From an uncultured Gammaproteobacteria bacterium (GTDB lineage: Bacteria; Patescibacteriota; Patescibacteriia; UBA9934), in the NCBI GenBank assembly GCA_964613815.1, contig CAZTKG010000004.1, forward strand, positions 25,892 to 89,891: a DNA stretch of 64,000 nucleotides, read 5' to 3'. Below are positions 1 to 56,916 of the stretch, one piece after another. Within the stretch, counting starts at the first letter, position 1, and every line of letters starts with the position of its first letter. The notes beneath the pieces are model-generated. The model saw nothing but the letters and a program-made list of their open reading frames with translations. It had not been told where the DNA came from and ran no database searches. The translations under genes and the position numbers were made by a program.

Positions 1-1
1 T

Positions 2-739
2 CTCAAGCTCGCCGACGCCGAAGTCATCATCATGATCGAAGGCACCGCCCCGATCATCTTCGACGCCTTCCACCCCGAAGACGCCGAACGCGTCCTCCTC
101 AGAGGCGTCAAGGACGAACCAGACCGAACCTCCAGCATGGAGAAACGTGCAGACAAAGCACTCTACAAAGGCCCCAAACTCGGAAAAGACACGACACACC
201 TCGTCATCCCCACTGCCAATCTCTGGGCATCCATCCGAGGAGGCGGAAAAGGACTCAAGACGGCAAACAAAAGCGTCTTCACAACGAGCAAGGACAAAAC
301 CCTCCTTCCCGCCCTTCTCAGATTCACACACACCAATGTATTGCTTCTGAGACGAACCAGGGGGACAAGTGTCCGCTGGGTATCCAGCCAAGACCGCCTC
401 CCAGACGGCAGACTAGGTCGCAACCCCAACAACAATGCCGCAACCTTCATCGCCAGAGCAAGCCTCGAAGCTGGATGGCTCGGCCTCGCTCACGCCGTCG
501 TCACCGCCGGAGGCATCGAAGGCGTCACCCTCGGCACCATCCAAACCCTCCTCGAACGTGGCGGCAGACTCGAAGGCCTCTGCTCCTTCCGCCCCGCCTG
601 CTCCGGCAACTTCGGCACCTACCGCCCAGTCCATCTGGCTGTCCGCCCCCTCGCCGAAGACGCGCAGAGCTACAAGGGTCCAAACCTCACCTCCGTTCTC
701 GGCGGCCGAGGTATCGCAAACAAGACATTTGCCGCATAG
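2..739 (+). CDS. hypothetical protein, 5'-partial at window edge; paralog of 844..1602
   Basis: Frame stays open to position 2. It shares with the next ORF an H-x-V-I-P-x-x-N-L block and the C-terminal motif G-P-[ND]-L-[TP]-[ST]-V-L-x-x-R-G-[IV]-A-N-K. A hairpin plus T-run follows at ~757-778. Confidence 0.5.
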   Translation, partial: LKLADAEVIIMIEGTAPIIFDAFHPEDAERVLLRGVKDEPDRTSSMEKRADKALYKGPKLGKDTTHLVIPTANLWASIRGGGKGLKTANKSVFTTSKDKTLLPALLRFTHTNVLLLRRTRGTSVRWVSSQDRLPDGRLGRNPNNNAATFIARASLEAGWLGLAHAVVTAGGIEGVTLGTIQTLLERGGRLEGLCSFRPACSGNFGTYRPVHLAVRPLAEDAQSYKGPNLTSVLGGRGIANKTFAA

Positions 740-843
740 ACGCCCACACCCCCCTCAAAAAGGGGAGTTTTTTTATCCAAATCCATTGACATCACACACC
801 CAACCTGCTACATTCCCTCTCCGCTCATTACACAGGAGACTCC

Positions 844-1602
844 ATGCCAAAAGACACCTACCTACGCATCACCATGACCCTCTCAGCCCTCAACGGCTCC
901 CCCCTACTCATGGAACGCTGCGCCCCAGACCGCATCCCCATCCTCAAGCAAGACCCCCCAAAAAAGACAAAAGACGGCAAAAAAAGAAGGTATCGTAAAT
1001 CCGACCTCAAGCCCTCCCCCGACCCAACAGACATCCCGCCAGAAGAAATCGCACGAGCTAAACTCTACATCAACGAAACCGGCCACCCCGTCATCCCTGC
1101 CATCAACCTCCTCACCTGCCTCCGAGAAGCCGGTCGTCACATCAAGGTCAAAGGAATCCCCCTCACCCGAGCAAACGGAACATCCATCGTCCACAAGGTC
1201 ATCACCTTCAACGCAGAAGCCTTCCCCCTACACAACATGCTCGGCGATACCCCTATCACCGTCGACGTCATCCAAGTCGACAAACGAAAAGGTCAATCCG
1301 GCCCCATCGCCCGCCCCGTCTTCGACGAATGGCAATTCCACGTCACCATGACCGTCCGCACAAACGCTCTCGGCGGCACGCTCAGCAAATCCCTCATCCG
1401 CAGCCTCGTCGCCACCGCCGGCGCCAGAATCGGCATCATGGCTTTCCGCAAGATAAAAGGCCACTCTTCCCCCTTCGGCAAATTCGAAATCACCGCCTGG
1501 CACGCAGAGTCCTGCAACGGCCCCACCACCTCCTACACCGGCCCCGACCTCCCAACCGTCCTCACCGCCCGCGGCGTAGCAAACAAATTCGCCACCCACT
1601 AA
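844..1602 (+). CDS. hypothetical protein, tandem paralog of 2..739
   Basis: AGGAG lies 6-7 nt upstream of ATG 844. Shared motifs with the preceding ORF. Terminator-like hairpin+T at ~1606-1626. Confidence 0.6.
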   Translation: MPKDTYLRITMTLSALNGSPLLMERCAPDRIPILKQDPPKKTKDGKKRRYRKSDLKPSPDPTDIPPEEIARAKLYINETGHPVIPAINLLTCLREAGRHIKVKGIPLTRANGTSIVHKVITFNAEAFPLHNMLGDTPITVDVIQVDKRKGQSGPIARPVFDEWQFHVTMTVRTNALGGTLSKSLIRSLVATAGARIGIMAFRKIKGHSSPFGKFEITAWHAESCNGPTTSYTGPDLPTVLTARGVANKFATH

Positions 1603-9688: not shown

Positions 9689-12019
9689 TTATTCTACAGG
9701 CTCAATCGGTTCAATATCATCAACCACATCATCACCAGCTCGCAATCGATCAAGCCGCTGCAAAACCGCCGTATCATCCGGATTCAACGTCTGCACAACC
9801 TCAACCTCCGCAATCGCTCGATCAATATCCCCACGATCTTCATAAATAGAAGAAAGATACCACCGCGCATTACTATAATACGGAGAAATCTCAATCACCC
9901 GCACAAACTCAGCCTCAGCCTCATCAACCTTTCCTTGCTGTAAATACAGAAGCCCAAGCTGGAACCCAACCCCAACATCCTGAGGATTCGCAAGGCGCAA
10001 CGTTTCAAGTCGAGAAACCGCCTCCGAAAGATTTCCCTGCCGAGAATAAGCAAGGGCTAAATAATAAAACGCAGGAGCATAATCCCCCTTCAATGCAAGC
10101 GCACTACCCAAAACCTCAACCGCCCGATCAAGCGCAGCTCCTCGCTCTTCAATTGCCCCTCGAGCAAAATCCTCATCCTCACTCGTCGCATAAACCGCAA
10201 GCTGATCAGCACGAATCAAATGCGCCCGCCCAAGCGCAACATAATACTTCGGATTCTGCGGAGAAAGCGCCACCGCCTCCTCATAAGCCGCGATAGCAAA
10301 CAAATCAGCATCAGCAACCACACTCGCAACATCTCGATAAACATCTCCAAGCGTGGACCAGTTCACGACATTATTAGGCGAAAGCTCCACACTTTTCTGC
10401 CCAGAAGAAATCGCAAGACCCACGACATCACGAAGCACATTCGGAGCCATCACCCCTTCCGAAACTTCCGTCGCGGCAAGTAAGTACGCGTGACTCAAAT
10501 TCCGATAATACGCATCATTCCATCGATTAAACCGAACCGCATCCTGCAAATAAGCAATAACCTCTTCCTTCTCAGCTCCTGCACTATCCGCACTAATCGC
10601 TCGAGCAAAAGAAATTTCCGCCGCATAACGAGAACTCGTCATAAACAAAAGCGTCACCACCCCAACCGACACGATCATAAATCCAAGCGATACGCCAAGT
10701 GCCATGCGAGGACTCCGTCTAAAGGCAATCACACGCTCCTTAGCAGGCAACCGACTCATCAAAAACGCAGACAAAAACCAAAACACAAACCCGAGCGTCA
10801 AATTCGAAGAATAGACAACCATCGCAAACATCAAAACCGCCCACCCGGAAAGCCCAATAACCGCAAGCATCCACTCCCGATCATCCCGCTCCCGAAACAC
10901 ATGCATAAGCGTCTCCCCAAGCAAAAATCCAACAAACAACAAAAACAACCCAACACCAACAATTCCCATCGTAGAAACAAGCGTGAACAAATGACTCACA
11001 CTCCGATCAAACCGCACATCCCAAAGCGCGGTAGAATTCACCTCCGCCACATGATGCTTCGCATAATCAATCACATACGTCCCAGGTCCAGACCCAAACA
11101 GCCATCCAAAGTCTCGAAGCGATTCCTCAGCAACATGCCAACTAGCTCCATAAGAAGGCGAAACCTCCGCCGGAAGCACTCCAGAAAGCGGCGAATCAAT
11201 AAACAAAAACAAAAGTGAAACAACAAACAGCACCATCACCGCCACAAGCCGACGAACCTCATCAAACACCCGCGGACGAATAAACCCAAACACGAACATA
11301 CACCCAAGACCAACAAGCACACTCATCCAAACAACCCAATAATCAAGCGCAAGCGCAACCAAAACAAACCCCAAAATCGAAATCCACATCAACCCTTTCT
11401 GCAAAACCCCCTTCCATCCCTCCGCAACTAAAACACCAACAGAATCATCACGAGACAAAACAAACACACCTCCAGCAATCACCGCCATGCAACCCAAATA
11501 CAACCCAAGCGCATGCGGTGTTCCAATCAAATTAAAAACTTCACCGCCAGAAAACACACCAAAAATCGAAACCAATCCAACGATTCCCGCGCCTCCAAAC
11601 AACGACCCAAAAAACGGCACCAAACTCTCCTCATCCCGAAGCATCCGAGCACCAACCAAAAACACCACCAAATAAGCAGCGATCGTCAAAAAACTCGTAT
11701 ATTCCTGCATCCCCTGACCAATAAAACTCGTCACCGGAGCAAGAGAAAATAACGAAGAAATCAAAACTCCAAGCCCAAACAACTTCGCAAGAACAATCAA
11801 ATTCAATTTCCAAACCCGAACCTTCTTCTCCAAAACCGACCCAGCCAAACTCCCGAGAAGTGCAAACAATCCAAAAACAAGCAAAACCGTCTGCTTATTA
11901 ATCTCCAAAGGATCCGTCGTCCAAGGCAAGTAAACAATTGGAATCAAAAAAACCAAAACAAAAATCGAATACCGCGAAAGAGAAGCAAAAAGCCTCTCAA
12001 AAGAAACACGAGTGTTCAT
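9689..12019 (-). CDS. O-antigen ligase-like (Wzy_C/WaaL family) polytopic membrane protein with C-terminal TPR repeats
   Basis: About 440 aa of multi-TM N-terminal region followed by tetratricopeptide-like repeats (A-x-x-Y-Y-x-L-A motifs). Confidence 0.6.
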   Translation of the reverse strand: MNTRVSFERLFASLSRYSIFVLVFLIPIVYLPWTTDPLEINKQTVLLVFGLFALLGSLAGSVLEKKVRVWKLNLIVLAKLFGLGVLISSLFSLAPVTSFIGQGMQEYTSFLTIAAYLVVFLVGARMLRDEESLVPFFGSLFGGAGIVGLVSIFGVFSGGEVFNLIGTPHALGLYLGCMAVIAGGVFVLSRDDSVGVLVAEGWKGVLQKGLMWISILGFVLVALALDYWVVWMSVLVGLGCMFVFGFIRPRVFDEVRRLVAVMVLFVVSLLFLFIDSPLSGVLPAEVSPSYGASWHVAEESLRDFGWLFGSGPGTYVIDYAKHHVAEVNSTALWDVRFDRSVSHLFTLVSTMGIVGVGLFLLFVGFLLGETLMHVFRERDDREWMLAVIGLSGWAVLMFAMVVYSSNLTLGFVFWFLSAFLMSRLPAKERVIAFRRSPRMALGVSLGFMIVSVGVVTLLFMTSSRYAAEISFARAISADSAGAEKEEVIAYLQDAVRFNRWNDAYYRNLSHAYLLAATEVSEGVMAPNVLRDVVGLAISSGQKSVELSPNNVVNWSTLGDVYRDVASVVADADLFAIAAYEEAVALSPQNPKYYVALGRAHLIRADQLAVYATSEDEDFARGAIEERGAALDRAVEVLGSALALKGDYAPAFYYLALAYSRQGNLSEAVSRLETLRLANPQDVGVGFQLGLLYLQQGKVDEAEAEFVRVIEISPYYSNARWYLSSIYEDRGDIDRAIAEVEVVQTLNPDDTAVLQRLDRLRAGDDVVDDIEPIEPVE

Positions 12020-12039: not shown

Positions 12040-15000
12040 TTACAAAGCTATAGTAGCACCCTCATCAGAAACCTGCTCTACCTCATCAACAATCTCCGGA
12101 GCAAGAACCTCAATCACAGGCTCATCAGCACCTTCAGAATCAACATCTTCAACCACATCAACCTCCTCTTCTACAAGAATCTCCTCAACCTCAGAATCAA
12201 CCACAATCTGCCCATCATCAGAAACCTCATCTTGAACACCAACCTCTTCTACAGGCTCTTCTTCCAAAATCTCCTCAAGAACCTCAACCTCTTCAACCAT
12301 CTCTTCATCAACAATCTCCTCATCCGCCTCCGGATCAAACACCGGCGCATAATCCTTATGATAAGCCACAACCATCCAATCAACCTTCGCATCACTATCC
12401 GTCTCAACCTCCTGAATCACAAACCCTCCATTATCCCGATCCCGAACATACAACTGCCCAGTCACAGAATCCGCCGTCAAAAACACACGATAATCATGAA
12501 CATTAGAAATCACATCATTAAACAAAGGATCAACCCGATCAAAATCAACACGAGCAAATCCATCCTTCAAATCAGACGTCCCAGACAAACTCACCGTCGC
12601 CTCACGAGAAAGCGCAGCATAGGTCTCCACATCTTCCCCTTGATAAGACTCAACAATCTGCACAATCTGCCCTTCAGTCGTAAAGTTCCCATTCTCATCA
12701 ATCGCCCAAGAAGTCCCAATCCCACTAATCGACCCAACAGAAATCACAGAACCTCCAGCGACATTCATATCAGTCGTATTCAAATCCGCAACAGCAACCA
12801 CAGAAGAAACCGCACTCACATCATCATCCGCATCAAAATACGAAACACGCACAAAACTCACAATAGACCCTTCTCCACCCTCATGAGCCTCCATCGCATA
12901 TCCCAAAATCACCCCACTCTCCGTCGCCTTCATCGCATACCCAGCCTTCGAAGATGTCGTAATAGGATCCCCGACCGCAATCGCCCCATTCTCATCCGTC
13001 ACAAGCGTTGGCACACGCCCAGCAAGCGCCACGGCAAAATGCCCCTCAATGTTCTCACCAGCGACAAACCCCGGCCGCGTAGAAATCACACCAACCGACG
13101 CCTTGTCATACACATCCCCATCAGACCGTTTCACACTCTCATCACCCCCCGCAAACACCACAACCTCTCCAGCCTGCAAATCATCATCAGACGGGAACAT
13201 CTCCGCAAAATCATAAGACCCAGTTCCCCATCCACCAGCATTCGTCCGCATCAAATCACCACCAGGCCCAGAAGAACCATCATAATAAATATACTTATCC
13301 GTCTGCATCACGCCCCTATCAGACGGATACAACCGACCCGCAAGTGCCAAATCGCCAGACTGATTCACATACGCAACCTCACTCCCAGCCGTATCAAGAA
13401 CCGACAACCGATAATCAGAAACCGTATCCACCTGCACCAAAAGTCCCATATCAACATCCTGCACAACCGACCCATCAAAACCAGAACCACGAAGCGTAAA
13501 CAAATTCGAATCAACACCGACATCACCAGCACTCGCCATGCCAGATGAGGCAATCTGCAAGTCTGTCAAAATAGACGTCGCGCTACCATCCTCCACAATC
13601 ACATCAACCGCCTGCCACTTAGGCTGCACAAACACCATGATCGTCCCATCGCCGCTTGAATGACCTTCAAGCGCTCGCCCAAGAACATACCCAGCTCCAG
13701 TAGCCTTTCTAGCCACGCCAGCCTCACTCGCAAGCGCCAAATAATCACCAGCAACAATCGCCCCACCGTCATCCGTCACATTCACAGGAACTTGCCCCAA
13801 AAGCGCCACCGGAACCGCATCCCCATCCGCACGCCAACCATCACGCCAGTTACCCAAAACATTCGGGGCGATCGAAAGAGCTCCAATCACCCGATCTGCA
13901 TCAATCGCTTTCACAATTTGCCCAGCCGCATTAAGCGCAACCACATCCCCTTCTGCAAAATCAGCATAAACTCCAGGGAAAAGCTCCGCATAGTCACTAC
14001 CAGAACTCGCATTTGTCACACCTCCAGCCCCATCTCCCTCAACCGCACCAACCGTCGTCCCATTCCCATCCCGAAACAGAATAAAATCACAATCAGAACT
14101 AGGATTCGTATCTTCACAAGCCGAAATACTAATTCCATCCTGGTCACTCGTATCCCCATCATTCGAAAGCTCCATAATAAACGCATCCGTCTCGGCATTA
14201 ATATCCACCGCCGAACCATTCGAAGAAACAGCCTGGTTCACCTGAAGTCCAATCGCATCATTTCCCGTATTCTCCATATTCACAACCAAAGCAGTCGCAT
14301 TTCCATCCTGATTCAACCGCAACACAGAAGAATCAAACAAAGAATTGTCAGCCGTAAACGCAACAAGCGGCTCCTCAGAATCCCCATCTTCATTCGTATA
14401 AACCGTCAAACCGTAATCCTGATTCCCCGTATTTGTAATATGAAGCGCTCCCCCAGCCGTGTCATCAAACGTAGATCCTGTATTCCCATTCTGATCCACA
14501 AAAACACCACTACCCGTTCCAGAAGAAGCAATATGAACAACATGTCCACTCGCACTCGCATAATTCTGATCAACTTCCAAAATGCTAGAAGAATCCGTAA
14601 CCGTTCCCGCCGTAATAGCCATCGAATTCTCAAGACTCAAAATCGACCCTGTCACCGTCATCGTTTCACCACCAGCATTCATTCCAAGCGTTCGCGTAAT
14701 AGGAACCGTATCTCCACTAACCGTATGTGTCGTCGTATGTGTTCCGCTCTGATAAATCTCAAGCATCTTCGCAGAAGTATAATCAGCAGAAGAAGTCGTA
14801 ATCGACAAACCAATCCCGCTCGTCAACGCATCAACACTAAGCGACTGCCCAAATCCAGACATAACCGTATCCGCAAGAACATTAAACGCCGCACTATTCG
14901 TCACCCCAGACGTATACGTAATCTGAGAATCATCAGCAATCGTCAGTAAGTCACTCCCATTATCCTGAATCAAAAAGTCTCCAGTACTATCCAAATTAAA

Positions 15001-16641
15001 CGTAATATTATTCGTCCCCATCGCTAGCGAAGTAGAAGCATCCAAACTAAGCGTATCGCTTAACTCAGAAAAATCTAAACAATCCGTACAATACAAATCT
15101 CCAACCTCAACATCTCCCTCCACATAAAGATCACCCGCCCCAGTCGCATTCGTCGGCGAATCCGGAGTCGAATCAGCTTCAATATGAACTGCCGATCCAC
15201 TAAAATAACCTGCAAAATTAGCTGTCCCACCACTCGCTTGAGCAAAAACTCCATATCGATTTGTCCCCTCAGAAATAGCATCAAACCGCCCTCCATAAGC
15301 CGTTCCAATACTTCCACCACCCGATTCAACGCTACCCAAAACCCCAAAAGCACTCGTCAATGTTCCACTAGAAGTAACCGCAAGTCCCTCAAGTCCAGCT
15401 GCAGTCGTCACAATCCCAGAACCATCATGCATCGCAGATCCAATCACGCCACGCAAAGAATTCGCCGCATTTGATCCGGAGATACGACCAATCCCCTTAA
15501 ACCCAGTAAAATTGTAAACATTCCCATCCGGATCAACACTACTAGTCACATACACAAATCCTCCATAATCACTCCGATCATCAGTCAACGTACCAGTAAA
15601 TTCCCCAGAAGAATCTCCATCAATCAAAAACTGCGATTGAGAAGCCACCGGACTCGTCTGGTCAGTAAAAGCCGAAATCCCACCAAATTCAAGCCCCCCA
15701 CCAGTCAAAACCAACCGATCGTCCGTCGTGTACGTCAGCGTCCCTTCATCCGCATCAGAAGCATTAAGCACAATCACCGCATTCGCCGTCGACCCAGTCC
15801 CAACCTCAATCTGATTCGCGCTCACATCCACCGCAAACGCCGCACTCGCAACCGTAGACCCCCCAATCGCCAAATCATCTGTCGTGCTCGTCAAATAACT
15901 CACCGTCCCCCCATCAGTCCAAAGCAAATCCCCGCTATAAGCCACCGTCCCATCCGCATCCTGAAACGTAATCACCCGATCAGCCGTAGGATCCGTAAAC
16001 GTAAAACTCGTCTCAAAATCATCATCAGTAGCCCCTTCAAACACCAGAGGACTTCCATCCCCCATCACCGCTCCAGAAAAATCATAAACCCCCGTAGCCG
16101 TCTGCGTCCCATCAAGCTGCAACAAATTACTAGAATCAATCCCATCAACCGTCTCCGCATTGAGCGCATAAGGCGCCGCAAGCAGCTGCTTCCGCGGCGT
16201 CAACGTCTCACTCTCAATGTAAACCTGCAAATAAATCGCCGCATTATCGCCAAAAACACTATCCGCAATCGCCGCATAAGGACTCACATCCCCCGTATCA
16301 CCAAGCTGCTCAGAAAAAAGCCCATTCGTCAGCGTCACCGTCCGAGCAACAGTCGAGGCCGGCGTATTCGTGTCACAATTCGCAGAAGAGTTAGACCAAA
16401 CACACGTCCCCCCAGTCAAAGCATCATAAAGCTCAAACTTCATACTAGCCGTAGAACTAGCAATCGGCGTCGAATTCGTATTCAAAACCCGCCCCTGATA
16501 CCCAATAATATTCGGCGCACTAGCAGCACCCACAAAACCCGCCCCCTGCAACTGCACCCCAAACAAAAAAGCAACCAAAACAAGTATCGCAAACCCACTT
16601 GCGACCCGCCTTAGTCGATATAATAAAAACTCCTTTTCCAT
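12040..16641 (-). CDS. giant (1533 aa) secreted/cell-surface protein, tail-fibre-like repeats, acidic C-terminal tail
   Basis: N-terminal signal/TM. N-terminal block I-I-G-Y-Q-G-R-V-L-N-T-N...F-E-L-Y-D-A-L-T-G-G and A-E-T-V-D-G-I-D-S-S-N-L motif. Two copies of a ~90-aa G-x-V-P-x-L-V-T-D-x-G-A-I-x-x-G-D...K-A-T-x-x-G-x-x-L-G module. C-terminal Glu/Val/Asp-rich tail. Confidence 0.6.
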   Translation of the reverse strand: MEKEFLLYRLRRVASGFAILVLVAFLFGVQLQGAGFVGAASAPNIIGYQGRVLNTNSTPIASSTASMKFELYDALTGGTCVWSNSSANCDTNTPASTVARTVTLTNGLFSEQLGDTGDVSPYAAIADSVFGDNAAIYLQVYIESETLTPRKQLLAAPYALNAETVDGIDSSNLLQLDGTQTATGVYDFSGAVMGDGSPLVFEGATDDDFETSFTFTDPTADRVITFQDADGTVAYSGDLLWTDGGTVSYLTSTTDDLAIGGSTVASAAFAVDVSANQIEVGTGSTANAVIVLNASDADEGTLTYTTDDRLVLTGGGLEFGGISAFTDQTSPVASQSQFLIDGDSSGEFTGTLTDDRSDYGGFVYVTSSVDPDGNVYNFTGFKGIGRISGSNAANSLRGVIGSAMHDGSGIVTTAAGLEGLAVTSSGTLTSAFGVLGSVESGGGSIGTAYGGRFDAISEGTNRYGVFAQASGGTANFAGYFSGSAVHIEADSTPDSPTNATGAGDLYVEGDVEVGDLYCTDCLDFSELSDTLSLDASTSLAMGTNNITFNLDSTGDFLIQDNGSDLLTIADDSQITYTSGVTNSAAFNVLADTVMSGFGQSLSVDALTSGIGLSITTSSADYTSAKMLEIYQSGTHTTTHTVSGDTVPITRTLGMNAGGETMTVTGSILSLENSMAITAGTVTDSSSILEVDQNYASASGHVVHIASSGTGSGVFVDQNGNTGSTFDDTAGGALHITNTGNQDYGLTVYTNEDGDSEEPLVAFTADNSLFDSSVLRLNQDGNATALVVNMENTGNDAIGLQVNQAVSSNGSAVDINAETDAFIMELSNDGDTSDQDGISISACEDTNPSSDCDFILFRDGNGTTVGAVEGDGAGGVTNASSGSDYAELFPGVYADFAEGDVVALNAAGQIVKAIDADRVIGALSIAPNVLGNWRDGWRADGDAVPVALLGQVPVNVTDDGGAIVAGDYLALASEAGVARKATGAGYVLGRALEGHSSGDGTIMVFVQPKWQAVDVIVEDGSATSILTDLQIASSGMASAGDVGVDSNLFTLRGSGFDGSVVQDVDMGLLVQVDTVSDYRLSVLDTAGSEVAYVNQSGDLALAGRLYPSDRGVMQTDKYIYYDGSSGPGGDLMRTNAGGWGTGSYDFAEMFPSDDDLQAGEVVVFAGGDESVKRSDGDVYDKASVGVISTRPGFVAGENIEGHFAVALAGRVPTLVTDENGAIAVGDPITTSSKAGYAMKATESGVILGYAMEAHEGGEGSIVSFVRVSYFDADDDVSAVSSVVAVADLNTTDMNVAGGSVISVGSISGIGTSWAIDENGNFTTEGQIVQIVESYQGEDVETYAALSREATVSLSGTSDLKDGFARVDFDRVDPLFNDVISNVHDYRVFLTADSVTGQLYVRDRDNGGFVIQEVETDSDAKVDWMVVAYHKDYAPVFDPEADEEIVDEEMVEEVEVLEEILEEEPVEEVGVQDEVSDDGQIVVDSEVEEILVEEEVDVVEDVDSEGADEPVIEVLAPEIVDEVEQVSDEGATIAL

Positions 16642-17110
16642 AAGCTGAAATCTGGAAAGAAAAACTTCTACCCAGAAACCAACCTACAGACAAAATTATA
16701 TCACACACGCCCCATCAAGCACCGATAACTACACACATTGACAAACAAGCAAAATTATGCCAATATATTTCAGATTCAAACAAAGGAATCTCGGAGCCTA
16801 TCATGCCCGCAAATCTCGAAAACATCTCCATCCGCACACACCATACAGCCGAATTAAACCACAGAGCATTCATTATCATAATGATGGCCATCCTGATGAC
16901 CGCCCTCATCGCACACCCACCGTTCACCGGCAAAGGAATTCCGCTCATGGCATGCGCTGCAATCTGCATCCTGAACTGCCTCAACTACGGATATCACAGA
17001 AGAGAGCTCAAAAAAGCCACCCCGGCCAACCATCCCGTCTAACTCGCCAACCAGCGAGTCATTTTTTTTCAAAACGCTTCTCAACTCTTCCACCCCTCCC
17101 CCTCTCTCTC

Positions 17111-17152
17111 CTTGATACAAAAGTGGTCCGTACGGACCACTTTTGTATCAAG
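17111..17152. repeat. 42-bp perfect palindrome CTTGATACAAAAGTGGTCCGTACGGACCACTTTTGTATCAAG
   Basis: Read directly; lies just 3' of the stop of the minus-strand gene 17172..19859. Confidence 0.9.
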
Positions 17153-17171
17153 CAAAATATCAAAATCCCAA

Positions 17172-19859
17172 CTAAGCCCCACCTTTCTGCAACCGCACAT
17201 CCACCGAAATCGGCGCCGGCTCCGTATTCGCCGTGTAATCAATCGGCCGCACTTCTTTCTTTGCAAACCCAGGCTTCTCAAACGTCACATAATACTCATT
17301 CGGCCCCACAAAAAACGCATACCGCCCTTTCTTATCAGACAACGTCGTCTCAATAAGCTTATTAAACTTCGGCTCAAACAACCGAACCACCGCATCCTTA
17401 ACCGGCTTCTTCTCCCCAGCCCAAACCATCCCCCACCCACGCTTCTGCTTCGGCCGAATCAAGTAAAACGTCACCCCCAAAACCCCAACCTGGAACCCAA
17501 ACAACAACTGTGTCACGAGCGTCGGATCAACAAACAACACAAATCCACTCAATCCCAATCCCGTCACCGAAACAACGTACTGAAGCACCCGCATAAACCG
17601 CTTCAAAGAAGCCTTCCGAGACCCAACGGCCCCCTCAACCTGCGCCGGATCAACAGGAATATTCGCCGCAATCACCGCATTCGCATCTGTCACCTCAACT
17701 TCTCCCCCATCATAAACATCCAAATACTGCCCATCCGCCTTCCGTCCCTTCACATACGCAGACGGCGAACGAAACCCTTGCTTCAAAACCTCCATCCGAT
17801 ACCGCCCATTATCAACCTTAAAGAAATACCGCCCCTCCTGATCTGTCACCATCGTTTTCACCAACTTCCCATCCGCGACATTAAACAACCGAACAATAGC
17901 CAAATCCACCGGCATCTTCGTCATCGAGTTGTACACGAGCCCAAACGTCTTCCGCTTCCGCCGAGCAAAAAACAAAATCGGTGACGTGAAGAAATATTGC
18001 AAAAATGGAAGCAATTGGAACGAACTCGTCAAAACAACCGCGCTCCCCACAGACGTCGCCACAACAACCGGCGTAGAAACCGTCGCCGCCACTTGAACCT
18101 CCGGCACCTCCCGAATCTCCTCAACAATCTGAGCCACATCATCAACAATTTCCTCAACAACCGCTACAGCAGCCTCCGGCACAATCACCTCCGCGATAGG
18201 CAAAGCCTCCGTAATCGCCTCAAAAACCGCCCCAACAACATCCTGCTCCACCATCTTAATCCGCGGCGCCAAAACCCCATGCGTCACCCGAATTTCAACC
18301 GAAGCATCATCAAAATCCACCTTCCCAGCCGTCACCCTATAAAGCCCATCAGGGACATACCAACCAACACCCCCACCAGAACTCGTCATCACAGGATTCG
18401 CTTGCCCATCAATCGCAACCCAAGGCGTCCAACTCCCGCCTTCATACACATATGCAATCACCGTAACCCCATCAAGCGGCTCCACCCCCTCTTCCCCATC
18501 AACATAAACAAGCCCTATCGAAGTTCGAATATCAAAATCCTCCGTCACCTGACGGCCATCATCAAACGCAACAACAACCTCCAAATCAAAACCAACATCA
18601 CCAATATCAATCGCCCCAACAAACGCCCCATCAACCTCCTCAAGCACAATCACCTCCCCGCCAGCCTCAACAACAGCCGAATCAACCTCATCCGCATCCT
18701 CCACCCGAACAACGACCTCAACCTCCCGCTCACCAAGAACATAAAAACTATCCCCCTCAGCATCAATAACGGCTTCACCAACAATCAAATCAACCCCTTC
18801 AATATCAACCCCATCAGAAGAACCACGAGATCCACCACCGTCAGACCCCCCAGATGATCCAGACGAACCTGAAGACCCTCCAGACGACCCACTCGACGAT
18901 CCAGACCCACTACTTCCACCCCCATCTCCGCTCCCACTATCACTACCAGACCCACCATCTGACCCCCCACCATCACCTCCGCCATCAGATCCACCAGAAT
19001 CCCCCCCACTTTCAGAACCTCCATCACTACCACCCCCCTCATCACCTCCACCCTCATCACCCGAATCGCCATCACCACCTTCATCAGAACCCTCACCATC
19101 ACCTTCTCCATCACCAGAATCCCCTTCATCCCCCGAATCACCTTCATCACCACTATCACCTTCTTCATCACCAGAATCATCACCAGAATCATCTCCAGAA
19201 TCATCACCATCACCACTATCACCATCCCCATCAGAATCACCGCCACCATCACCTCCTCCATCACCACCGACCCCACCTCCACCTCCGCCGCCACCGCTAG
19301 AAGGCACCGTAGCCGAAACCTGCCCATCATCATCACTCACCACAGGCACAGGTACCGTCCCAGAATCCCCAAAAGTCCCTGCCAACGCCAAATAATACGT
19401 CCCAATCGAAGAAGGATTCGTCACCTGATTCGACCCAGATCCGCTCGCCGTCGCATTCGCCCCAACCTCAATCGTCACCTCACTCGCAGCCGCCACCGCC
19501 CCACCGTCACCACTACACCAAGTCAGCGTCAGAACACTCGAAGCCATCACCACACTCACCGCCTCACTCCCGCTACAGTCCGCCGCCGTACTCAAATCCA
19601 CTCCATCGTCCGCCACATCAACATCATCCTCAACAACAGAACTCGTCGTAAATCCAGAAGGAAACGTCAACGTCAACGTCTCCCCTTCAGCAACCCCTCC
19701 AGGCGTCGTAAAAACAACCAAATGATTAGACCCCGTGCTCGTCTTAAGCGAACTCGGCCGATCATAAACACTCGTCACCGTCGCCGCCTCTACCCAAAAA
19801 CCGCTCATCGAAAAGCAAATGAGCAATGCAAAAATAAATGAAAACACCCTCCGCAACAT
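17172..19859 (-). CDS. large surface protein with Gly/Asp/Ser-rich low-complexity tract and carboxypeptidase-regulatory-like (transthyretin-fold) repeats
   Basis: Signal peptide. ~180-aa G/D/S/E low-complexity region. Three V-R-L-F-x...D-x-x-G-R-Y-x-F-x-V-x-x-G-x-Y repeats. Hydrophobic segments between them. Confidence 0.6.
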   Translation of the reverse strand: MLRRVFSFIFALLICFSMSGFWVEAATVTSVYDRPSSLKTSTGSNHLVVFTTPGGVAEGETLTLTFPSGFTTSSVVEDDVDVADDGVDLSTAADCSGSEAVSVVMASSVLTLTWCSGDGGAVAAASEVTIEVGANATASGSGSNQVTNPSSIGTYYLALAGTFGDSGTVPVPVVSDDDGQVSATVPSSGGGGGGGGVGGDGGGDGGGDSDGDGDSGDGDDSGDDSGDDSGDEEGDSGDEGDSGDEGDSGDGEGDGEGSDEGGDGDSGDEGGGDEGGGSDGGSESGGDSGGSDGGGDGGGSDGGSGSDSGSGDGGGSSGSGSSSGSSGGSSGSSGSSGGSDGGGSRGSSDGVDIEGVDLIVGEAVIDAEGDSFYVLGEREVEVVVRVEDADEVDSAVVEAGGEVIVLEEVDGAFVGAIDIGDVGFDLEVVVAFDDGRQVTEDFDIRTSIGLVYVDGEEGVEPLDGVTVIAYVYEGGSWTPWVAIDGQANPVMTSSGGGVGWYVPDGLYRVTAGKVDFDDASVEIRVTHGVLAPRIKMVEQDVVGAVFEAITEALPIAEVIVPEAAVAVVEEIVDDVAQIVEEIREVPEVQVAATVSTPVVVATSVGSAVVLTSSFQLLPFLQYFFTSPILFFARRKRKTFGLVYNSMTKMPVDLAIVRLFNVADGKLVKTMVTDQEGRYFFKVDNGRYRMEVLKQGFRSPSAYVKGRKADGQYLDVYDGGEVEVTDANAVIAANIPVDPAQVEGAVGSRKASLKRFMRVLQYVVSVTGLGLSGFVLFVDPTLVTQLLFGFQVGVLGVTFYLIRPKQKRGWGMVWAGEKKPVKDAVVRLFEPKFNKLIETTLSDKKGRYAFFVGPNEYYVTFEKPGFAKKEVRPIDYTANTEPAPISVDVRLQKGGA

Positions 19860-19868
19860 GAATCTCCG

Positions 19869-20861
19869 TTATCGAGATTGAAAAAAACGCACACAAACGA
19901 TCGATCCTCCAAGTAAAACACTAATCAAAAGCAGTACACGCCACGGCACCATCACAATATGAATGGCATCAATCGGCATCACCGCTCCATCAATCGATGT
20001 CCGCAAATCAGGCTTAACACGAAACAGCCCAATCATACCAAGAGAAACTTCTCGCTTCAGCCCATCAAAAAACCCATCAGGACTCCCAGAAGCCTCCCCC
20101 TGCACCCATTGTAATCCGAATTCCCTCTCACCTCCAGGCAGAACCCGATGCAAATGTGCATTAAATGGAAGCCGCGCCCGTTCCTGACCAAACAAATTCT
20201 CTATCACAATAGTCCCATAAGGCTGCAAAACCTGCTCCCCAGAATTCCTCACATCAAGCAAAATATCAACCGGCTTCACAGATGTCATCACAGGCGTTGC
20301 CAAAAACTCCGTCACACCATACCCCTGCACCAACCGTTCCCCATCAATCGTCAAAAACACAAGCGGCATCACCCCAGACTGCACCGTCACTCCCCCTCCT
20401 CGTTCTTCAAGCTCCTCCACAATCTTCACCCCAAATGAATAAACCCCAGGCTGAACCCCCTCAAAAGGCCCCATCGCAACCAAAACCTCCGTTTCCTCAC
20501 CAGGGTCAAGAAAAAAAGCTTCAGTAGAAATCAAAATCTGCTCCAAAACCCCCTCCGGAAACTCCCCATCCATCAAATCCCCCCCAGCCAAAACCTCCGC
20601 AGCATCCACCGGCACCAAAGAAACCGTATAAACCCGAGAATACACAGAATTATTAGCAACAAAAAAAGACCGCTCCGCCCCAAACCCCTCTTCAACCTCC
20701 ACATCCTCCACAAGCGGAGATGCCGTAACAGCAAAACAAACATTAAAACCTGCAAAAAACAAAAAACAACTACCAAGCATCACAACAATCCCCAAACCAA
20801 ATCGCTCCAAAAAAACTGACATAAACATGCAAAAAGTATAACACGCTACGCTCAAACACAT
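19869..20861 (-). CDS. hypothetical exported protein with C-terminal TM anchor (start uncertain)
   Basis: Hydrophobic N-terminus and C-terminal helix followed by a basic tail. Sits in the surface-protein block. Confidence 0.45.
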   Translation of the reverse strand: MCLSVACYTFCMFMSVFLERFGLGIVVMLGSCFLFFAGFNVCFAVTASPLVEDVEVEEGFGAERSFFVANNSVYSRVYTVSLVPVDAAEVLAGGDLMDGEFPEGVLEQILISTEAFFLDPGEETEVLVAMGPFEGVQPGVYSFGVKIVEELEERGGGVTVQSGVMPLVFLTIDGERLVQGYGVTEFLATPVMTSVKPVDILLDVRNSGEQVLQPYGTIVIENLFGQERARLPFNAHLHRVLPGGEREFGLQWVQGEASGSPDGFFDGLKREVSLGMIGLFRVKPDLRTSIDGAVMPIDAIHIVMVPWRVLLLISVLLGGSIVCVRFFQSR

Positions 20862-20902
20862 TGATACAAAAATGGTCCGTACGGATCACGCCTCATACAA
20901 AG
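20861..20902. repeat. degenerate copy of the 42-48 bp palindrome
   Basis: TTGATACAAAAATGGTCCGTACGGATCACG... keeps the left half-site; the right half is decayed. Confidence 0.6.
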
Positions 20903-20956
20903 AGAAACTTTTATAAAAAACAAAAACGGTAAATATTGGCAAATATTATGAATATC

Positions 20957-21004
20957 CTGCCTGATACAAAAGTGGTCCGTACGGACCACTTTTGTATCAG
21001 GCAG
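20957..21004. repeat. 48-bp perfect palindrome CTGCCTGATACAAAAGTGGTCCGTACGGACCACTTTTGTATCAGGCAG
   Basis: Read directly; shares the same 38-bp core as 17111-17152. Confidence 0.9.
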
Positions 21005-21041: not shown

Positions 21042-21968
21042 TTAAAAATCTCCAACATAAATCACCGAAATTGTGTGGGAATAACTCCCATCATCCGTCC
21101 CAGCAGCAATCGCCGCCTTTAGTGTTAAAAAATCACGCGACCGAAGCGCCACAGCAGAACGATCAGCCGCAATCTGCGCAGTCGTCGTAATCGCGGTATC
21201 AGCAGTATCGAAAGTCGTGGACGCAATCGAAGAGTCGCTAGACCTAGCGCCATATTCCTCACTTCCAGCACTCACCGTCCCGTCACTCACATCCGTAATC
21301 GTATTCGAAAGATCATTACTATGCGCCAAGCCTCGATTTTCTTCTACATAAACCGAATATCCATCCGGCACATCTGTAGAAGCCTCCCAACCAACGATCG
21401 ACGTAGCAACAGCGCTGCTAGAAAGCGACCCCAAACTCAAACTAGTCCCATCAAGCGCATAAACATAGTCAGAAGTCCCATCAACACTAACCGAAGTATC
21501 CCCCTCAGCGAGCCAATCAAGCACCAAATCCGATCCAGAAACACTAGAAATCTTTCCCATCGCGCTCACCTGACTCGCCCCCTCATCCTGAACCACAGCA
21601 ACATAATCCCCAACACTAAATCCAGTAGCATCAGAAACCGTCACAGTGCTCCCACTAAGCGCACTAGCCCCTACCTGACTCGTCGCGTCTTGAAGCAAAA
21701 CCTCAAAAGCCACCGTTTGATCATAAATTCCACCACGGTAACCTCCTCTCACATCATAAGAAGTACTCGTAATCCTCCCAAGCGCCTGCCCGCCAACACT
21801 ATCCCTCAACTCATAATTCGACGAACTTCCGGTGTCTCCACCCCCTTGAGACAGGTTGTCCCAATCAATCCGAAAATTACTAGACGTCATCTGCGCAAAA
21901 CTAACACTTCCAGGAGCAAGAACGACCCCCAAACAAACCACTACACCAACAAGACGCGCTAAATTCAT
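21042..21968 (-). CDS. hypothetical secreted Ser/Thr/Gly-rich protein
   Basis: Signal peptide ending S-F-A. Low-complexity S/T/G/D-rich body. Confidence 0.45.
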   Translation of the reverse strand: MNLARLVGVVVCLGVVLAPGSVSFAQMTSSNFRIDWDNLSQGGGDTGSSSNYELRDSVGGQALGRITSTSYDVRGGYRGGIYDQTVAFEVLLQDATSQVGASALSGSTVTVSDATGFSVGDYVAVVQDEGASQVSAMGKISSVSGSDLVLDWLAEGDTSVSVDGTSDYVYALDGTSLSLGSLSSSAVATSIVGWEASTDVPDGYSVYVEENRGLAHSNDLSNTITDVSDGTVSAGSEEYGARSSDSSIASTTFDTADTAITTTAQIAADRSAVALRSRDFLTLKAAIAAGTDDGSYSHTISVIYVGDF

Positions 21969-21999
21969 ACACATTCATTATACATCGAGCACAATTCTT

Positions 22000-22740
22000 G
22001 GTCAAAGAAATATTAAGCCAATCTTAGCCACAAATCGAACATTGTGGAAGCTTTCAAAACCCACAAAAAACAGATCAAATCCAAATCTGTGGATAAATAG
22101 CTCATTTTCCACACCAAAAACACACATCAAAAAACCGCATGACACCTCACCAAAAAAATGCCCAACCATGACCCGAAAAAAAGACAAATCACTGATCTGC
22201 CTCCTCAACCAACACAAAAACCACCCAGGCCTCAATCAAAAGAAGCGGAGAAAATTTCTCAAAACTCAAAAACCCAAATTTGTCTACGCAATTCTCGACA
22301 TTCATCACAAAAAAAAATACACGTCTCGTTCCTCACAACAAAAACACAAGTTCTCAATCACAAAAAAATAACAACCATTTTTTCCTCGCGAAACACATTC
22401 TGTAGATAACCTGTAAATAACCCTGTGAACTTCTTGTAGATACACACAATCAGTCCACACCCAAAAAAATCAAAAAACACCAATAAACCATCAATTTTCC
22501 ATCGATACTCACACCAAAACCACAACGTTATCCACCGAACCAACGATCATAAACCAATCAAAACAACCAAACCCAAACAGGGCAGGGCACCAAACCAAAA
22601 AAATCCACCCTCATCACAGTGGACAACTCCCCACTTCTCCACAGTCAATACACAAAACAACCATCAACAAAATCAAAACACCAAAAAAACGGCCCACAGC
22701 CGAAAAAATAATGTCTTCCAGTTACTTTTATCAAACACAG
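22000..22740. promoter_or_regulatory. ~0.75-kb non-coding A/C-rich tract with DnaA-box-like 9-mers
   Basis: No ORF with usable codon structure. Motifs CTGTGGATAAA, TTTTCCACACC, CTGTAGATAAC, GTTATCCACCG, AGTCCACACC, GTGGACAACT. Confidence 0.4.
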
Positions 22741-26433: not shown

Positions 26434-26648
26434 CCATTTGCTCGTTAGTCATCCGCTAACACTGCGGGCGCCTCGCCCCCAGAAAAAAGCATACCTGACA
26501 CGACCAGGCACGCTGCAAATATGCGACTTTTACCCGCTTCGCTCCAGTAAAAGTCGCATATTTGCCACTCAAGCTGCGCTCGAAGCCATCACGCAACTGT
26601 CATCAAGCGAAATGGAACTCACCCCCTAACGAAGGGGTATTTCTTTTT
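26434..26648 (+). ncRNA. small structured RNA unit A2
   Basis: TTGACA 26398-403, 17 nt, TAGAGT. 5' CCATTTGCTCGTT / 3' GCGAAATGG. Internal hairpin GGGCG-CCTC-GCCC and a perfect 19-bp stem GCAAATATGCGACTTTTAC/GTAAAAGTCGCATATTTGC. Terminator CCCCT-AACGA-AGGGG plus T-run. Confidence 0.5.
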
Positions 26649-29984: not shown

Positions 29985-31440
29985 ACCACATCGAACCCAG
30001 GCCACGAGCAAATTGCTAGAACCTCTTCAAGAGACGGTCGCTAACCTTCTTGCGCCTCGCATCAAGTAGACCATTCACCCAACTCGACCAGCCCGGTCCA
30101 TCACGCCACTCTCAAGCGACGTGATCCCCGGATCGATACCATCCTACGTCAGGTATCGATTTCGACACCTCAGATTTCAATTACACACTTCCGGCTTCCA
30201 GCCTCCGTCGCGAAATCAAAATCAGAGGTGTCAAAACTATCGATCTCATTCGAATTTGCTTTTCACATCTTAACGGTTTGCTAGACTCCCAAAAGGGAAG
30301 GCCCCTCATCCGCACGCGCTTCGCGTCCGGTAGGCCAGTCACCCCTCGTGACCACGCATGACAGAAATCTGTCATGTCCTGTCATGTTGCTACTCACTCA
30401 TCGTTGAATGAGCAACATAATAACTTCCTCGCTCGCCACAACATGACAGAACCGAGCACGACAAGCGAAACCGTCCTAAACCACGCAACCTAAACACCGT
30501 GGTTTACCACGTCGCTCGCGCAGCGACGTGGCTCTTATCCCGCCCCTGAACCTCTCAGAGTCGGGAACCGAGTAAACTGCTAGAACCTCTCATCGGAGAG
30601 TCGGTCATTCATCTTCTTGCACCCAGCATTAAGTAGACCATTCACCCAGCTCGTCAAGCCCGGCCTCATCACGTCGCTCAAGAGCAACGCGACGAGGTCA
30701 TAACGTCACGACGTCACGATACCGTTACGGTAACGTCACGGTAACGTCACGTCATCAGAGGCCGTCGCCGAGTAACATCAACGCGCCGTAACGTCACCGT
30801 GACGTTACCGCAACGGCACTGTCGAGCTCTTACGAGTTTACTTCCTAGCGACTTGCTAGACACCCCGAAAGGGAAGGCCCCCTCATCCGCACGCGCCTCG
30901 CGTCCGGTAGGCCAGTCACCCCCAGAGGCCATGCCAGGGACAAACAAGTATGTCCCTGCTGGTCCCCTATCGCATTCGTCAGATGCATGGCGAACACGCT
31001 ATCACATCATGACTCACCGCGACAGGGACAAGCCAAGGCCATCCAGCGAAGTCGTTCCACCGTCGCCCACGCGACACCCTCCGGAGAATTCTCCGGGCTC
31101 TTATTCCGCCTCTGACCCAATCAGAGACGGAACATGGGCAAACTGCTAGAACCTTCTCGCAAGAGAAACGGCCATCAATCTTTCTGCGCCGTGCACCAAG
31201 TAGGCCATTCACCCGACTCGACCAACCCGGTCCTCCGGAAATGTCGGGAAACCCGATGCATTTTTACACGAGCTCGCGCGATATCGCGCGACCTTCCCTC
31301 CACTCGTTCGCGCGATATCGCGCGATCTAGCGCAAACAACGGGTCCTCACGAGTTTGCCACGCCAGAGGCCAAGCCTCTGGATTCTTCTATCGAGCTCCT
31401 CCCCGAGAAGCCCGACAAAAGAATCCCTAGCCCTTTCAAA
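29985..31440 (+). repeat. structured non-coding spacer: three diverged tandem composite units (modules E-C-var-D-var) plus perfect palindromes
   Basis: C modules 30010-30099, 30574-30665, 31139-31234 begin AAA(T/C)TGCTAGAACC. D modules 30278-30345 and 30852-30922 begin TTGCTAGAC. E modules 30530-30568 and 31095-31133. Palindromes GTAACGTCAC-c-GTGACGTTAC at 30788-30808 and TCGCGCGATATCGCGCGA at 31274-31291 and 31308-31325. Confidence 0.7.
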
Positions 31441-33413: not shown

Positions 33414-33650
33414 AGTGCTACGTGGCCCGACCACACCTCTTCTCGCGCCTCGCGACAAGTTTACGCACAACCTAAGCGGACCAAGCCTGGCGCTTGCGCG
33501 TCTCATGAGTTTGTCGCACTACGTCGCGACCGCACTTCATGACGCCCTTCGCCCATCATTGCGGACAGCTCTTATCCCTACGGGGACCTGTCCGCAACGT
33601 ACGCTCAATCTCAACGCCCGCCGTGCATGCACGGCGGGCGCCTTTGATTT
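33414..33650 (+). ncRNA. small structured RNA unit F (same family, variant ends)
   Basis: TTGACA 33379-84, 17 nt, TAAATT 33402-07. Internal hairpin cTTCTCGCG-CCTC-GCGAcAAG matching the family motif. Terminator CGCCCGCCGTGCATGCACGGCGGGCG plus T-rich tail. Confidence 0.5.
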
Positions 33651-37662: not shown

Positions 37663-38595
37663 CTATTCCTCCTTTCCATGATGCTTCTGATGCACCTCTT
37701 TCAAACGCTTATCCGTCACATGCGTGTAAACCTGCGTCGTCGTAATGGACTCATGCCCAAGCATGCTCTGCACACTCCGAATGTCCGCCCCGCTCCGCAA
37801 TAAATCCGTCGCAAATGTGTGCCGAATCGTATGCGGCGTAATCCGTTTCGCAATTCCTGCACTTCTAGCATACTTCTCAATCGTCCGCTGAATCGACCGA
37901 GGAGTAAGCGCTCCAGGTTCCCCGCGCCCAGCCTTAGCCCGATCATGACTCACAAATAAATGAGGCGACAAATCCTGCCGAGCTTCAACATAATCACGCA
38001 CCGCATCCTTAGCAGTTTCGCTCATAAACACCACACGATGCTTACTACCCTTGCCCTTAACCGTAAACTCATCCCTCTTCAAATTTAAATCATCAATCAA
38101 AAGCTTAGAAAGCTCACTAACACGAAGCCCCGTACTAAAAAGCATCTCCAAAATAGCCGAATCCCGAAGCCCAATGATCCCCGGCGTCTTATCAACCGCC
38201 AAAAACATCTCCTTCAAATCCTCTGGCTCCAAAAACTCCACCTTCCGAGTCTCATGTTTCGCAAGTTCGATCTTCTCCGGACTAAGCGTCTTCACATCAA
38301 TCTTGTGCAAATACTTCAAAAAAGACCGTAAAGCAATCAAATGATAATTCTGCGTCGTCTTTTTCAAATTCACATCATCCCGCCCCTCAACCTCACGATT
38401 CAAAAACAACCGATATTGCCGAACCATCTCCAAATCAATCTTATCCGGGGCAGGATACTTCGCCCATTTCCCAAACCGACTCAAATAAAAGTCATAATTC
38501 TGAATAGTATTCGCACTTCGACCACGCTCAACCTCCAAATACTCCAAAAATTGCGTAATAAGCTCCTGCAAACGACTCTTTTTTCCCATAAACAA
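37663..38595 (-). CDS. xerC: tyrosine site-specific recombinase XerC/XerD family
   Basis: R...H-T-I-R-H-T-F-A-T, L-G-H-E-S-I-T-T-T-Q-V-Y-T-H-V catalytic tyrosine region, N-terminal SAM-like domain. Confidence 0.8.
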   Translation of the reverse strand: MFMGKKSRLQELITQFLEYLEVERGRSANTIQNYDFYLSRFGKWAKYPAPDKIDLEMVRQYRLFLNREVEGRDDVNLKKTTQNYHLIALRSFLKYLHKIDVKTLSPEKIELAKHETRKVEFLEPEDLKEMFLAVDKTPGIIGLRDSAILEMLFSTGLRVSELSKLLIDDLNLKRDEFTVKGKGSKHRVVFMSETAKDAVRDYVEARQDLSPHLFVSHDRAKAGRGEPGALTPRSIQRTIEKYARSAGIAKRITPHTIRHTFATDLLRSGADIRSVQSMLGHESITTTQVYTHVTDKRLKEVHQKHHGKEE

Positions 38596-47080: not shown

Positions 47081-47165
47081 TGTCCACAAAACTGTGGATA
47101 AACCAGTTTTTATCACAACCTTATCCACAGCACACCCGACATCACACAAAAAAATTATCCACACC
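47081..47165. promoter_or_regulatory. cluster of four or more DnaA-box matches outside the dnaA locus
   Basis: TGTCCACAA 47081-89, CTGTGGATAA 47092-101, TTATCCACAG 47121-30, TTATCCACACC 47155-65. Confidence 0.5.
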
Positions 47166-56709: not shown

Positions 56710-56916
56710 ACAGTAATTTCAGAAGGAACATATCAAATGCATACACATTTGTCAACAAAAATAAATCACGCATTTTATCCACTCTATCCACAGCTATTCC
56801 ACAGTTTAACCAAACCTAACCACCTTGATAACTGTGGATATCCGTAATAAAATGCTGAATGTCGTCCAACATCAATCAACGTCACTCTGGTGGTGACCTT
56901 TTATCAAAGGAGCAAT
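56710..56916. promoter_or_regulatory. candidate oriC (rpmH-dnaA spacer) with clustered DnaA boxes
   Basis: TTATCCACT 56776-84, ATCCACAG 56787-94, TATTCCACAG 56795-804, CTGTGGATAT 56832-41, followed by an AT-rich stretch. A compositional skew inversion occurs nearby. Confidence 0.55.

Follow-up and report, generated by a model that had tools for sequence, protein, structure and literature searches.

A repeated palindrome in lineage-specific spacers of a patescibacterial surface-protein operon, probably an oversized two-way terminator

The stretch of DNA studied here (the window) spans 64,000 nt of an uncultured bacterium of the GTDB lineage Patescibacteriota, UBA9934 (GenBank assembly GCA_964613815.1, contig CAZTKG010000004.1, positions 25,892 to 89,891 of the forward strand), and carries a minus-strand operon in which we found two long perfect palindromes, A and B, with an identical 38-nt core, together with a decayed third copy, C. 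Judging from their sequence anatomy, A and B are probably paralogous two-way (A-tract/U-tract) Rho-independent terminators that split one operon into three units, and an ordinary mechanism in an unusual form, namely an oversized and duplicated terminator, is the most likely explanation of these palindromes. Read along the minus strand, the order is p310, B, C, p330, p895, A, a 530-nt spacer, a gene for a 1533-aa protein and a TPR gene. Thus A stands 3' of the 895-aa gene and B 3' of the 310-aa gene, with C immediately 5' of the 330-aa gene, which is where a first-pass annotation of the window had placed them.

The palindromes and the terminator module inside them

Both palindromes, their shared 38-bp core and their coordinates (Table 1) were recovered exactly as first described, and the existence of a decayed third copy was confirmed by relaxed searches, which place C at 20862-20901. 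Palindrome A extends to 46 nt if one mismatch is allowed. The core common to A and B is TGATACAAAAGTGGTCCGTACGGACCACTTTTGTATCA (TGATAC...GTATCA), and its 26-nt centre occurs twice in the window and not once in 100 dinucleotide-preserving shuffles of it. Searches of the window with the half-site (up to 3 mismatches) and with the 14-nt centre (up to 2 mismatches) returned A, B and C only. In C, positions 20862-20889 keep the centre and one arm with two substitutions, both transitions, which weaken the stem, and positions 20890-20901 hold the opposite arm in direct orientation where an inverted arm would be expected. The hairpin of C on the minus strand reaches only -3.4 kcal/mol, and this copy is probably the non-functional relic of an older one.

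Compared over 46 nt of the minus strand, A and B read TGC(T/C)TGATAC...GTATCA(A/G)GCA and differ at three positions. Two of these flank the core and pair with each other, as T..A in A and as C..G in B. Perfect pairing is therefore kept outside the core because of a double, compensatory change; by our estimate, three random substitutions would place two on one pair and restore its complementarity in about 2% of cases. Terminators of Bacillus cereus are reported to show the same pattern of compensatory change in their stems (PMC5381666).

The palindromes are real. Independent assemblies of this population from JGI and ENA samples, 99.6-100% identical to the window, contain A, B and C, and this recurrence rules out an artefact of assembly. 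One scaffold of the same population has Ns inside A, and a short contig (L019) carries two substitutions within one arm of B. The right edge of A and its flank (17147-17163) also match, exactly and over 17 nt, positions 20253-20269 inside the p330 coding sequence (short-word blastn, E=0.005), probably by chance.

Each core contains the parts of an intrinsic terminator in the layout ATACAAAA-GTGGTCC-GTAC-GGACCAC-TTTTGTAT, in other words A4-GTGGTCC-GTAC-GGACCAC-T4GTAT. The inner stem, with five G-C pairs among its 7 bp and a free energy of -11.4 kcal/mol, lies together with its GUAC loop within the ranges taken for stem (5-14 bp) and loop (3-8 nt). Immediately 3' of this stem, on each strand, comes UUUUGUAU, with six U in eight positions; the mirror A-tract AUACAAAA stands 5' of it, and both A and B occupy non-coding DNA downstream of stop codons. 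The first-pass annotation had seen no U-tract and on that ground had set simple intrinsic terminators aside. The first statement is wrong, as TTTTGTAT comes straight after the 7-bp GC-rich inner stem on either strand and the U-tract lies inside the palindrome. The palindromes look as if they had no U-tract because the T-tract pairs inside them, so that scanners which extend the stem miss it. A built-in terminator scan of the window did not report A or B, apparently by extending the stem through the T-tract and finding no T-run beyond; a scan that fixes the T-tract first calls both as terminators, on both strands.

At least eight other gene-end terminators in the window share this design. The pattern CAAAA-stem-loop-stem-TTTTG follows the genes for S20 (24548), a tRNA (37172), pnp (45822), the H+-pyrophosphatase (53602), trigger factor (54990), PBP1 (59821) and orf62826 (63583), and the TTTTG tail is present on most other terminators in the window. 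On a re-implemented d'Aubenton-Carafa d-score, whose energy parameters differ from the original so that its values are relative only, the core of A and B scores about +10, those other terminators range from -8 to +21, and C falls to -31. Terminators built of an A-tract, a GC-rich hairpin and a U-tract, and acting in both directions, are discussed in Safina et al. 2017 (PMC5381666). A and B resemble them in the 7-bp GC-rich stem, the tetraloop, the UUUUGUAU downstream, the mirror A-tract and the position just past stop codons. They differ in that the stem is doubled, the palindrome runs about 10 bp past the U-tract, 38 bases are shared by two copies, and B stands between co-directional genes.

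If A and B do terminate, the inner 7-bp stem and GUAC loop followed by UUUUGUAU would stop RNA polymerase, with minus-strand 3' ends predicted near 17116-17120 and 20965-20969, and the released RNA would carry at its 3' end a highly stable hairpin due to the long outer stem.

Lineage-specific spacers and the origin of the element

We compared the locus with nine Uhrbacteria-like relatives (L010, L011, L012, L014 and L026-L030). The gene order p310-p330-p895-1533aa-TPR is conserved and tightly packed in all nine. The p330 ATG lies within the last codons of p310 in every one of them, an overlap of 17 nt that leaves no spacer, and the gap from p895 to the next gene is 23-122 nt in the eight readable relatives (L030 was left out, as its gene call looked wrong). 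The window has instead a spacer of 180 nt holding B and C, and the 530-nt spacer holding A. The palindrome is missing from all nine relatives (L010-L014, and L026-L030, which gave no match to the 14-nt centre), and the spacer DNA besides the palindrome has no match elsewhere in the window or in relatives L010-L015. Orthologues of p310 in the nine relatives are 45-59% identical to that of the window. The window is a segment of chromosome, with dnaA, dnaN, polA, pnp and the genes for H+-pyrophosphatase, trigger factor and PBP1, and its RmuC is about 70% identical to RmuC of Candidatus Uhrbacteria and other Patescibacteria bins.

Each lineage-specific spacer combines a candidate terminator with a promoter-like motif (Table 1). 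The putative promoters of p330-p895 and of the 1533-aa gene were assigned by eye; at p330 the distance from the putative -10 to the ATG would be that of a leaderless transcript, as at the promoter-like site of p310. We hypothesise that an ancestral packed operon was in this way turned into the units p310, p330-p895 and 1533aa-TPR, with the antisense orphan ORF79 between the last two, and that one hairpin element of about 46 nt was used at both cuts, C being an older, decayed copy of it. A homologue search with ORF79 (open reading frame, ORF) returned only its own sequence and revealed no mobile cassette. The surface-protein genes themselves vary in length among assemblies of this population. 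The Gly/Asp/Ser tract of p895 (18800-19300) differs, the gene being split into 184+538 aa in one assembly and called as 718 aa in another, and the 1533-aa gene has a 78-aa duplication (12081-12324) in one ENA scaffold, which brings it to 1611 aa. Such differences could be repeat-driven variation or errors of assembly.

Table 1. Palindromes, terminator modules, genes and putative promoters of the locus, and the hairpin at the corresponding junction in relatives
Feature	Position	Strand	Remarks
Palindrome A, CTTGATACAAAAGTGGTCCGTACGGACCACTTTTGTATCAAG	17111..17152	none	42 nt, arms 21+21 nt, 100% complementary, no gap; between p895 and ORF79
Palindrome B, CTGCCTGATACAAAAGTGGTCCGTACGGACCACTTTTGTATCAGGCAG	20957..21004	none	48 nt, arms 24+24 nt, 100% complementary, no gap
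Copy C, decayed	20862..20901	none	found by relaxed half-site and centre searches
Terminator module of A	17115..17140	-	7-bp stem GUGGUCC/GGACCAC with GUAC loop (17123-17140), U-tract UUUUGUAU (17115-17122)
Mirror-image module of A	17123-17148	+	
Terminator module of B	20964..20989	-	same hairpin at 20972-20989, U-tract 20964-20971
p310, 310-aa secreted protein, first operon gene	21042..21974	-	public gene calls start at 21968 (308 aa)
Promoter-like site of p310, TTGACC-17-TATAAT	21977..22005	-	8 nt before ATG 21968, leaderless geometry
p330, longest ORF 330 aa	19869..20861	-	public gene calls start at 20828 (319 aa), 11 codons later
Putative extended -10 TGTTATACT for p330-p895	20835..20843	-	by eye; 6 nt before ATG 20828, immediately downstream of C
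p895, 895-aa surface protein	17172..19859	-	Gly/Asp/Ser low-complexity tract, weak CarboxypepD_reg-like repeats
ORF79, 79-aa hydrophobic orphan	16803..17042	+	GGAG Shine-Dalgarno; convergent with p895; this lineage only
Promoter-like site of ORF79, TTGACA-17-CAATAT	16738..16766	+	
One-way terminator of ORF79, ACTCGCCAACCAGCGAGT then C-A-T8	17042..17067	+	
Putative extended -10 TGATATAAT facing the 1533-aa gene	16695..16703	-	by eye; inside the 530-nt spacer
1533-aa surface protein	12040..16641	-	weak match to Peptidase_G2 (intramolecular-chaperone autoproteolysis) domain
776-aa TPR protein, last operon gene	9689..12019	-	
Hairpin at the p895 junction of relatives	L010:4290-4370 (-); L026:14417-14471; L027:14395-14462		

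The first-pass annotation had proposed a genome-wide count, and this reached 80.9 kb (window coordinates -7308 to 73578, extended by contigs of the same population), about one tenth of a genome whose size of about 1 Mb is itself an estimate; within it there are three copies and no others, all inside 3.9 kb. None of 185,579 species-representative genomes contained an exact 20-mer match, and IMG/VR and the phage and plasmid records gave none either. An 18-mer scan of JGI metagenome contigs, a collection evidently without the source contigs, gave nine matches, all in unrelated flanks and attributable to chance. A protein-database search with the three-frame translations of the palindrome returned nothing, not even the known 199-aa ORF over A, and is therefore uninformative. 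So far, the element is private to this population and local to this operon. The accessible data thus favour the simpler picture that the first-pass annotation had set against its own proposals, in which only these copies exist and transcripts end there, and its interpretation is partly supported overall.

A different origin could be considered for the same hairpin. It could be a non-autonomous element of 46 nt, resembling repetitive extragenic palindromes (REPs), their hairpin-forming doublets (REPINs) or miniature inverted-repeat transposable elements (MITEs), and copied by an enzyme encoded elsewhere, for example a REP-associated tyrosine transposase (RAYT) or an IS200-type HUH transposase, with termination or stabilisation as a by-product. 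This explanation overlaps with duplicated terminators on function and differs on origin, and we regard it as unlikely. There are several copies with an identical core and a decayed relic beside an intact copy; every copy is extragenic, in spacers missing from all nine relatives; and in the spacers of A and B the palindrome is the sole repeated DNA, the surrounding sequence being unique. Against a mobile origin stand the small number of copies in 80.9 kb and their confinement there to a single locus, the absence of a match in the other public collections searched, and the spacers themselves, which carry far more new DNA (about 210 and 530 nt) than the palindrome and are not clean insertions. 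Alignments for target-site duplications or repeats around the spacers were no better than shuffled controls, and where a MITE would have direct repeats at its flanks, those of A and B are inverted complements. Nor is there a GTAG-type head, or any tetranucleotide head common to the flanks of A and B, and a Pfam scan of 37 window ORFs turned up no transposase or RAYT (Y1 HUH).

The REPs of E. coli, hundreds of which are dispersed over the chromosome, measure about 35 nt and are imperfect as palindromes; they have a conserved head recognised by RAYT, lack a U-tract and are partly Rho-dependent. A and B are unlike them in being perfect, in holding a full intrinsic-terminator module and, with C, in making up three occurrences at one locus. 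The likeness to REPs and to bacterial interspersed mosaic elements (BIMEs) lies in a repeated extragenic palindrome, set in a 3' untranslated region or within an operon, clustered, intact beside decayed, and with a similar proposed dual role. In E. coli such elements were proposed to be transcription attenuators and protectors of upstream mRNA, and are reported as terminators and stabilisers both (Harris et al. 2026, bioRxiv 10.64898/2026.03.23.713779). The suggestion of a REP/BIME-like element made at first pass therefore stands as far as repetition, extragenic position, lineage-specific spacers and a decayed copy are concerned, and fails on dispersal over 81 kb, on the GTAG head and on a RAYT among the Pfam-scanned ORFs. 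The more specific idea of a self-propagating, REPIN-type "mobile terminator", copied by some enzyme and breaking up a conserved, translationally coupled operon, with the outer stem kept for recognition or RNA processing, seems to us rather improbable. If true, this would be the first description of its kind in Patescibacteria, from a genome-reduced bacterium of the Candidate Phyla Radiation (CPR).

The long outer stem and other possible roles

Several observations weigh against the palindromes being duplicated terminators. Counted together with the A- and U-tracts and the GAUAC(A/G)GCA arms outside them, the stems are 19 bp long in A and 22 bp in B around a 4-nt loop, with RNA free energies of -30 and -40 kcal/mol, about double those of the other terminators in the window (at most 13 bp, -7 to -19 kcal/mol). 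A begins 19 nt past the p895 stop and B 37 nt past the p310 stop, distances that exceed the -2 to +11 nt usual here. About 10 outer pairs lie beyond the point of polymerase release, and neither their perfection nor the compensatory change is accounted for by termination alone. Two-way symmetry is of no use at B, whose neighbours are co-directional, or at A, where ORF79 has a terminator of its own. To our knowledge, terminators that arose separately do not as a rule have 38 bases in common; some process of copying must therefore be supposed, and no candidate for it was found. Finally, the closest relatives, L010, L026 and L027, have directly after the stop of their p895 orthologue, at the same junction as A, a conserved hairpin of about 20 bp, GTTGGTGCATACATGTCTGA-loop-TCAGACATGTGGGTATCAAC, with G.U pairs and no U-tract, which hints at a role other than termination. 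This hairpin of the relatives may be an intercistronic RNA element. The similarity between it and A is not significant by shuffling, though TAGTTGG and GTATCAA are common to both.

These observations bear on a second explanation, according to which the palindromes are intercistronic hairpins for RNA processing or stability, either RNase III sites or blocks to 3' exonucleases, so that without efficient termination a single long transcript would yield p310, p330-p895 and the downstream genes at differing levels. RNase III needs about two helical turns of duplex, and the stems of 19-22 bp offer just that, with a continuous duplex of about 20 bp. Pairing that persists well past the U-tract, compensatory pair included, the U-tract-less hairpin of the three relatives and a PNPase encoded in the window are all compatible with processing. 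However, the inner module has all the parts of a canonical terminator and is of the type usual in this genome, the promoter-like motifs after each palindrome fit separate transcripts, and the resemblance of A to the hairpin of the relatives does not exceed chance. Known RNase III hairpins between cistrons, as in the early region of phage T7 and the rpsO-pnp leader, usually have internal loops and no terminator module; A and B are like them in that about 20 bp of duplex would separate cistrons on a polycistronic transcript, and unlike them in having that module. We give processing without termination only a slim chance, though the long-stem RNA processing element suggested at first pass may be an added role or an alternative one. 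Rfam covariance models assigned the palindromes to no family at the gathering threshold, with only generic hairpin (miRNA precursor) matches below it.

Lastly, the palindromes could act as DNA, bound by a protein, either as operators of the surface-protein genes or as targets of a recombinase or hairpin-resolving enzyme that inverts or excises p330-p895. Their dyad symmetry is perfect, the intact copies bracket the fastest-evolving genes (p330 is 25-28% identical to relatives, against 45-55% for p310), C abuts the putative p330 promoter, and a tyrosine recombinase is encoded at 37663-38595. This recombinase, the sole one in the window, is nevertheless Xer-like, lies 16.7 kb away and has the same neighbourhood in L026 and L027, where it was seen and neither of which has the palindrome, and the recombinase target proposed at first pass is not supported. 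The cores of tyrosine-recombinase sites of the dif or lox kind consist of inverted arms around an asymmetric spacer of 6-8 bp, and the symmetric centre of A and B, GTAC / CCGTACGG, is unlike these. Neither an inversion nor a deletion was seen in the independent assemblies examined, which are all collinear. As for an operator, the intact copies are 3' of genes and away from promoters, and 38-48 bp far exceeds known operators, as had been remarked at first pass. The change from T..A to C..G suits base pairing better than base-specific protein contacts, and no DNA-binding domain was matched (Pfam) in the five operon proteins or the flanking RmuC. A recombinase target or operator is accordingly very unlikely. 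The computed energies of the DNA hairpins, -20 kcal/mol for A and -26 kcal/mol for B, would make cruciform extrusion physically possible.

Other kinds of repeated or hairpin-forming sites were also considered. Uptake sequences are 9-12 nt long and occur about once per kb. In Neisseria and Haemophilus, inverted pairs of them double as terminators, as outlined in Kingsford et al. 2007 (PMC1852404). The likeness to A and B is that one sequence is reused as terminator stem after different genes; an uptake sequence was rejected here on the lack of over-representation, with three copies in 81 kb and none in the related genomes. The attC sites of integrons have R''/R' boxes (RYYYAAC / GTTRRRY) and extrahelical bases, and belong to promoterless cassettes. 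The palindromes have no GTTRRRY boxes and a stem without bulges, and the genes they flank are syntenic core genes in the relatives, so an attC site was discarded. A CRISPR or TIGR (tandem interspersed guide RNA) array was rejected on the presence of just two adjacent copies and no associated genes, a dif site on the presence of three copies, near dnaA, and a protelomerase-type hairpin-resolution site on the chromosomal operon context, no such enzyme having been found.

Further features of the window and the meaning of the divided operon

Several other features of the window were recorded in passing. Between 39400 and 41700 on the plus strand there are about 2.3 kb without convincing ORFs and with at least six tandem paralogous units, mostly about 300 nt apart, several of which have a TTGACA...CTAATAT-like promoter motif and an intrinsic terminator of their own. 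Conserved in these are TCGATTTGCTAGATCGA at the 5' end, the hairpin CCCGCGCCCCGCGGCAAGACCC and, at the 3' end, CAACAAGCGAAATCGAGC, which is complementary to the 5' end, whereas the middle varies. The region looks like an array of structured small-RNA genes, and it had no match in Rfam, even at E<=1.

DnaA-box-like 9-mers (TTATCCACA, up to one mismatch) number 27 in the window against 12.2 +/- 3.4 expected. Six of them are at 22024-22643, in a non-coding, A/C-rich stretch of about 900 nt upstream of p310; three perfect boxes fall within 70 nt at 47093-47163, and three boxes at 56775-56841 are just upstream of dnaA. The two strands of the window are very strongly, and almost evenly, asymmetric in composition. 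The GC skew of the window runs from -0.14 to -0.55 and the AT skew from +0.11 to +0.45 in all 2-kb bins except the last, regardless of gene orientation, and the skew nears zero only in these last 2 kb, beyond dnaA-dnaN.

Three further inverted repeats were seen. A GC-rich perfect palindrome of 26 nt, CGCCCGCCGTGCATGCACGGCGGGCG (33615-33640), about 130 nt downstream of polA, has a weak T-run and is unlike the usual terminators; nested repeats of the palindrome TCGCGCGATATCGCGCGA (31263-31337) lie just upstream of a 605-aa ORF without Pfam match; and a 19-nt perfect inverted repeat with a 13-nt loop, GCAAATATGCGACTTTTAC...GTAAAAGTCGCATATTTGC (26515-26565), adjoins a minus-strand terminator at 26488-26514. 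At the left edge of the window (1-1602 and about 1.3 kb leftward, L020:1734-4679), a pair of paralogous ORFs, 275 and 252 aa long and alike at their C-termini (...Y(K/T)GP(N/D)L..V(L)..RG(I/V)ANK), stands between an N6/N4 DNA methyltransferase and a DEAD/ResIII helicase, and this locus may be a defence or restriction-like module.

The case of A and B carries a warning, in that terminators whose A- and U-tracts pair with one another mimic long palindromes, and were missed here by the first-pass annotation and by a scanner alike. For the biology of CPR bacteria, the finding would be a small regulatory annotation and no new mechanism. If A and B are indeed duplicated terminators, the locus would provide a clear natural example of operon fission, in one lineage set against nine packed relatives, in which gained spacers of terminator plus promoter divided the operon, one terminator sequence serving at the two points of division.

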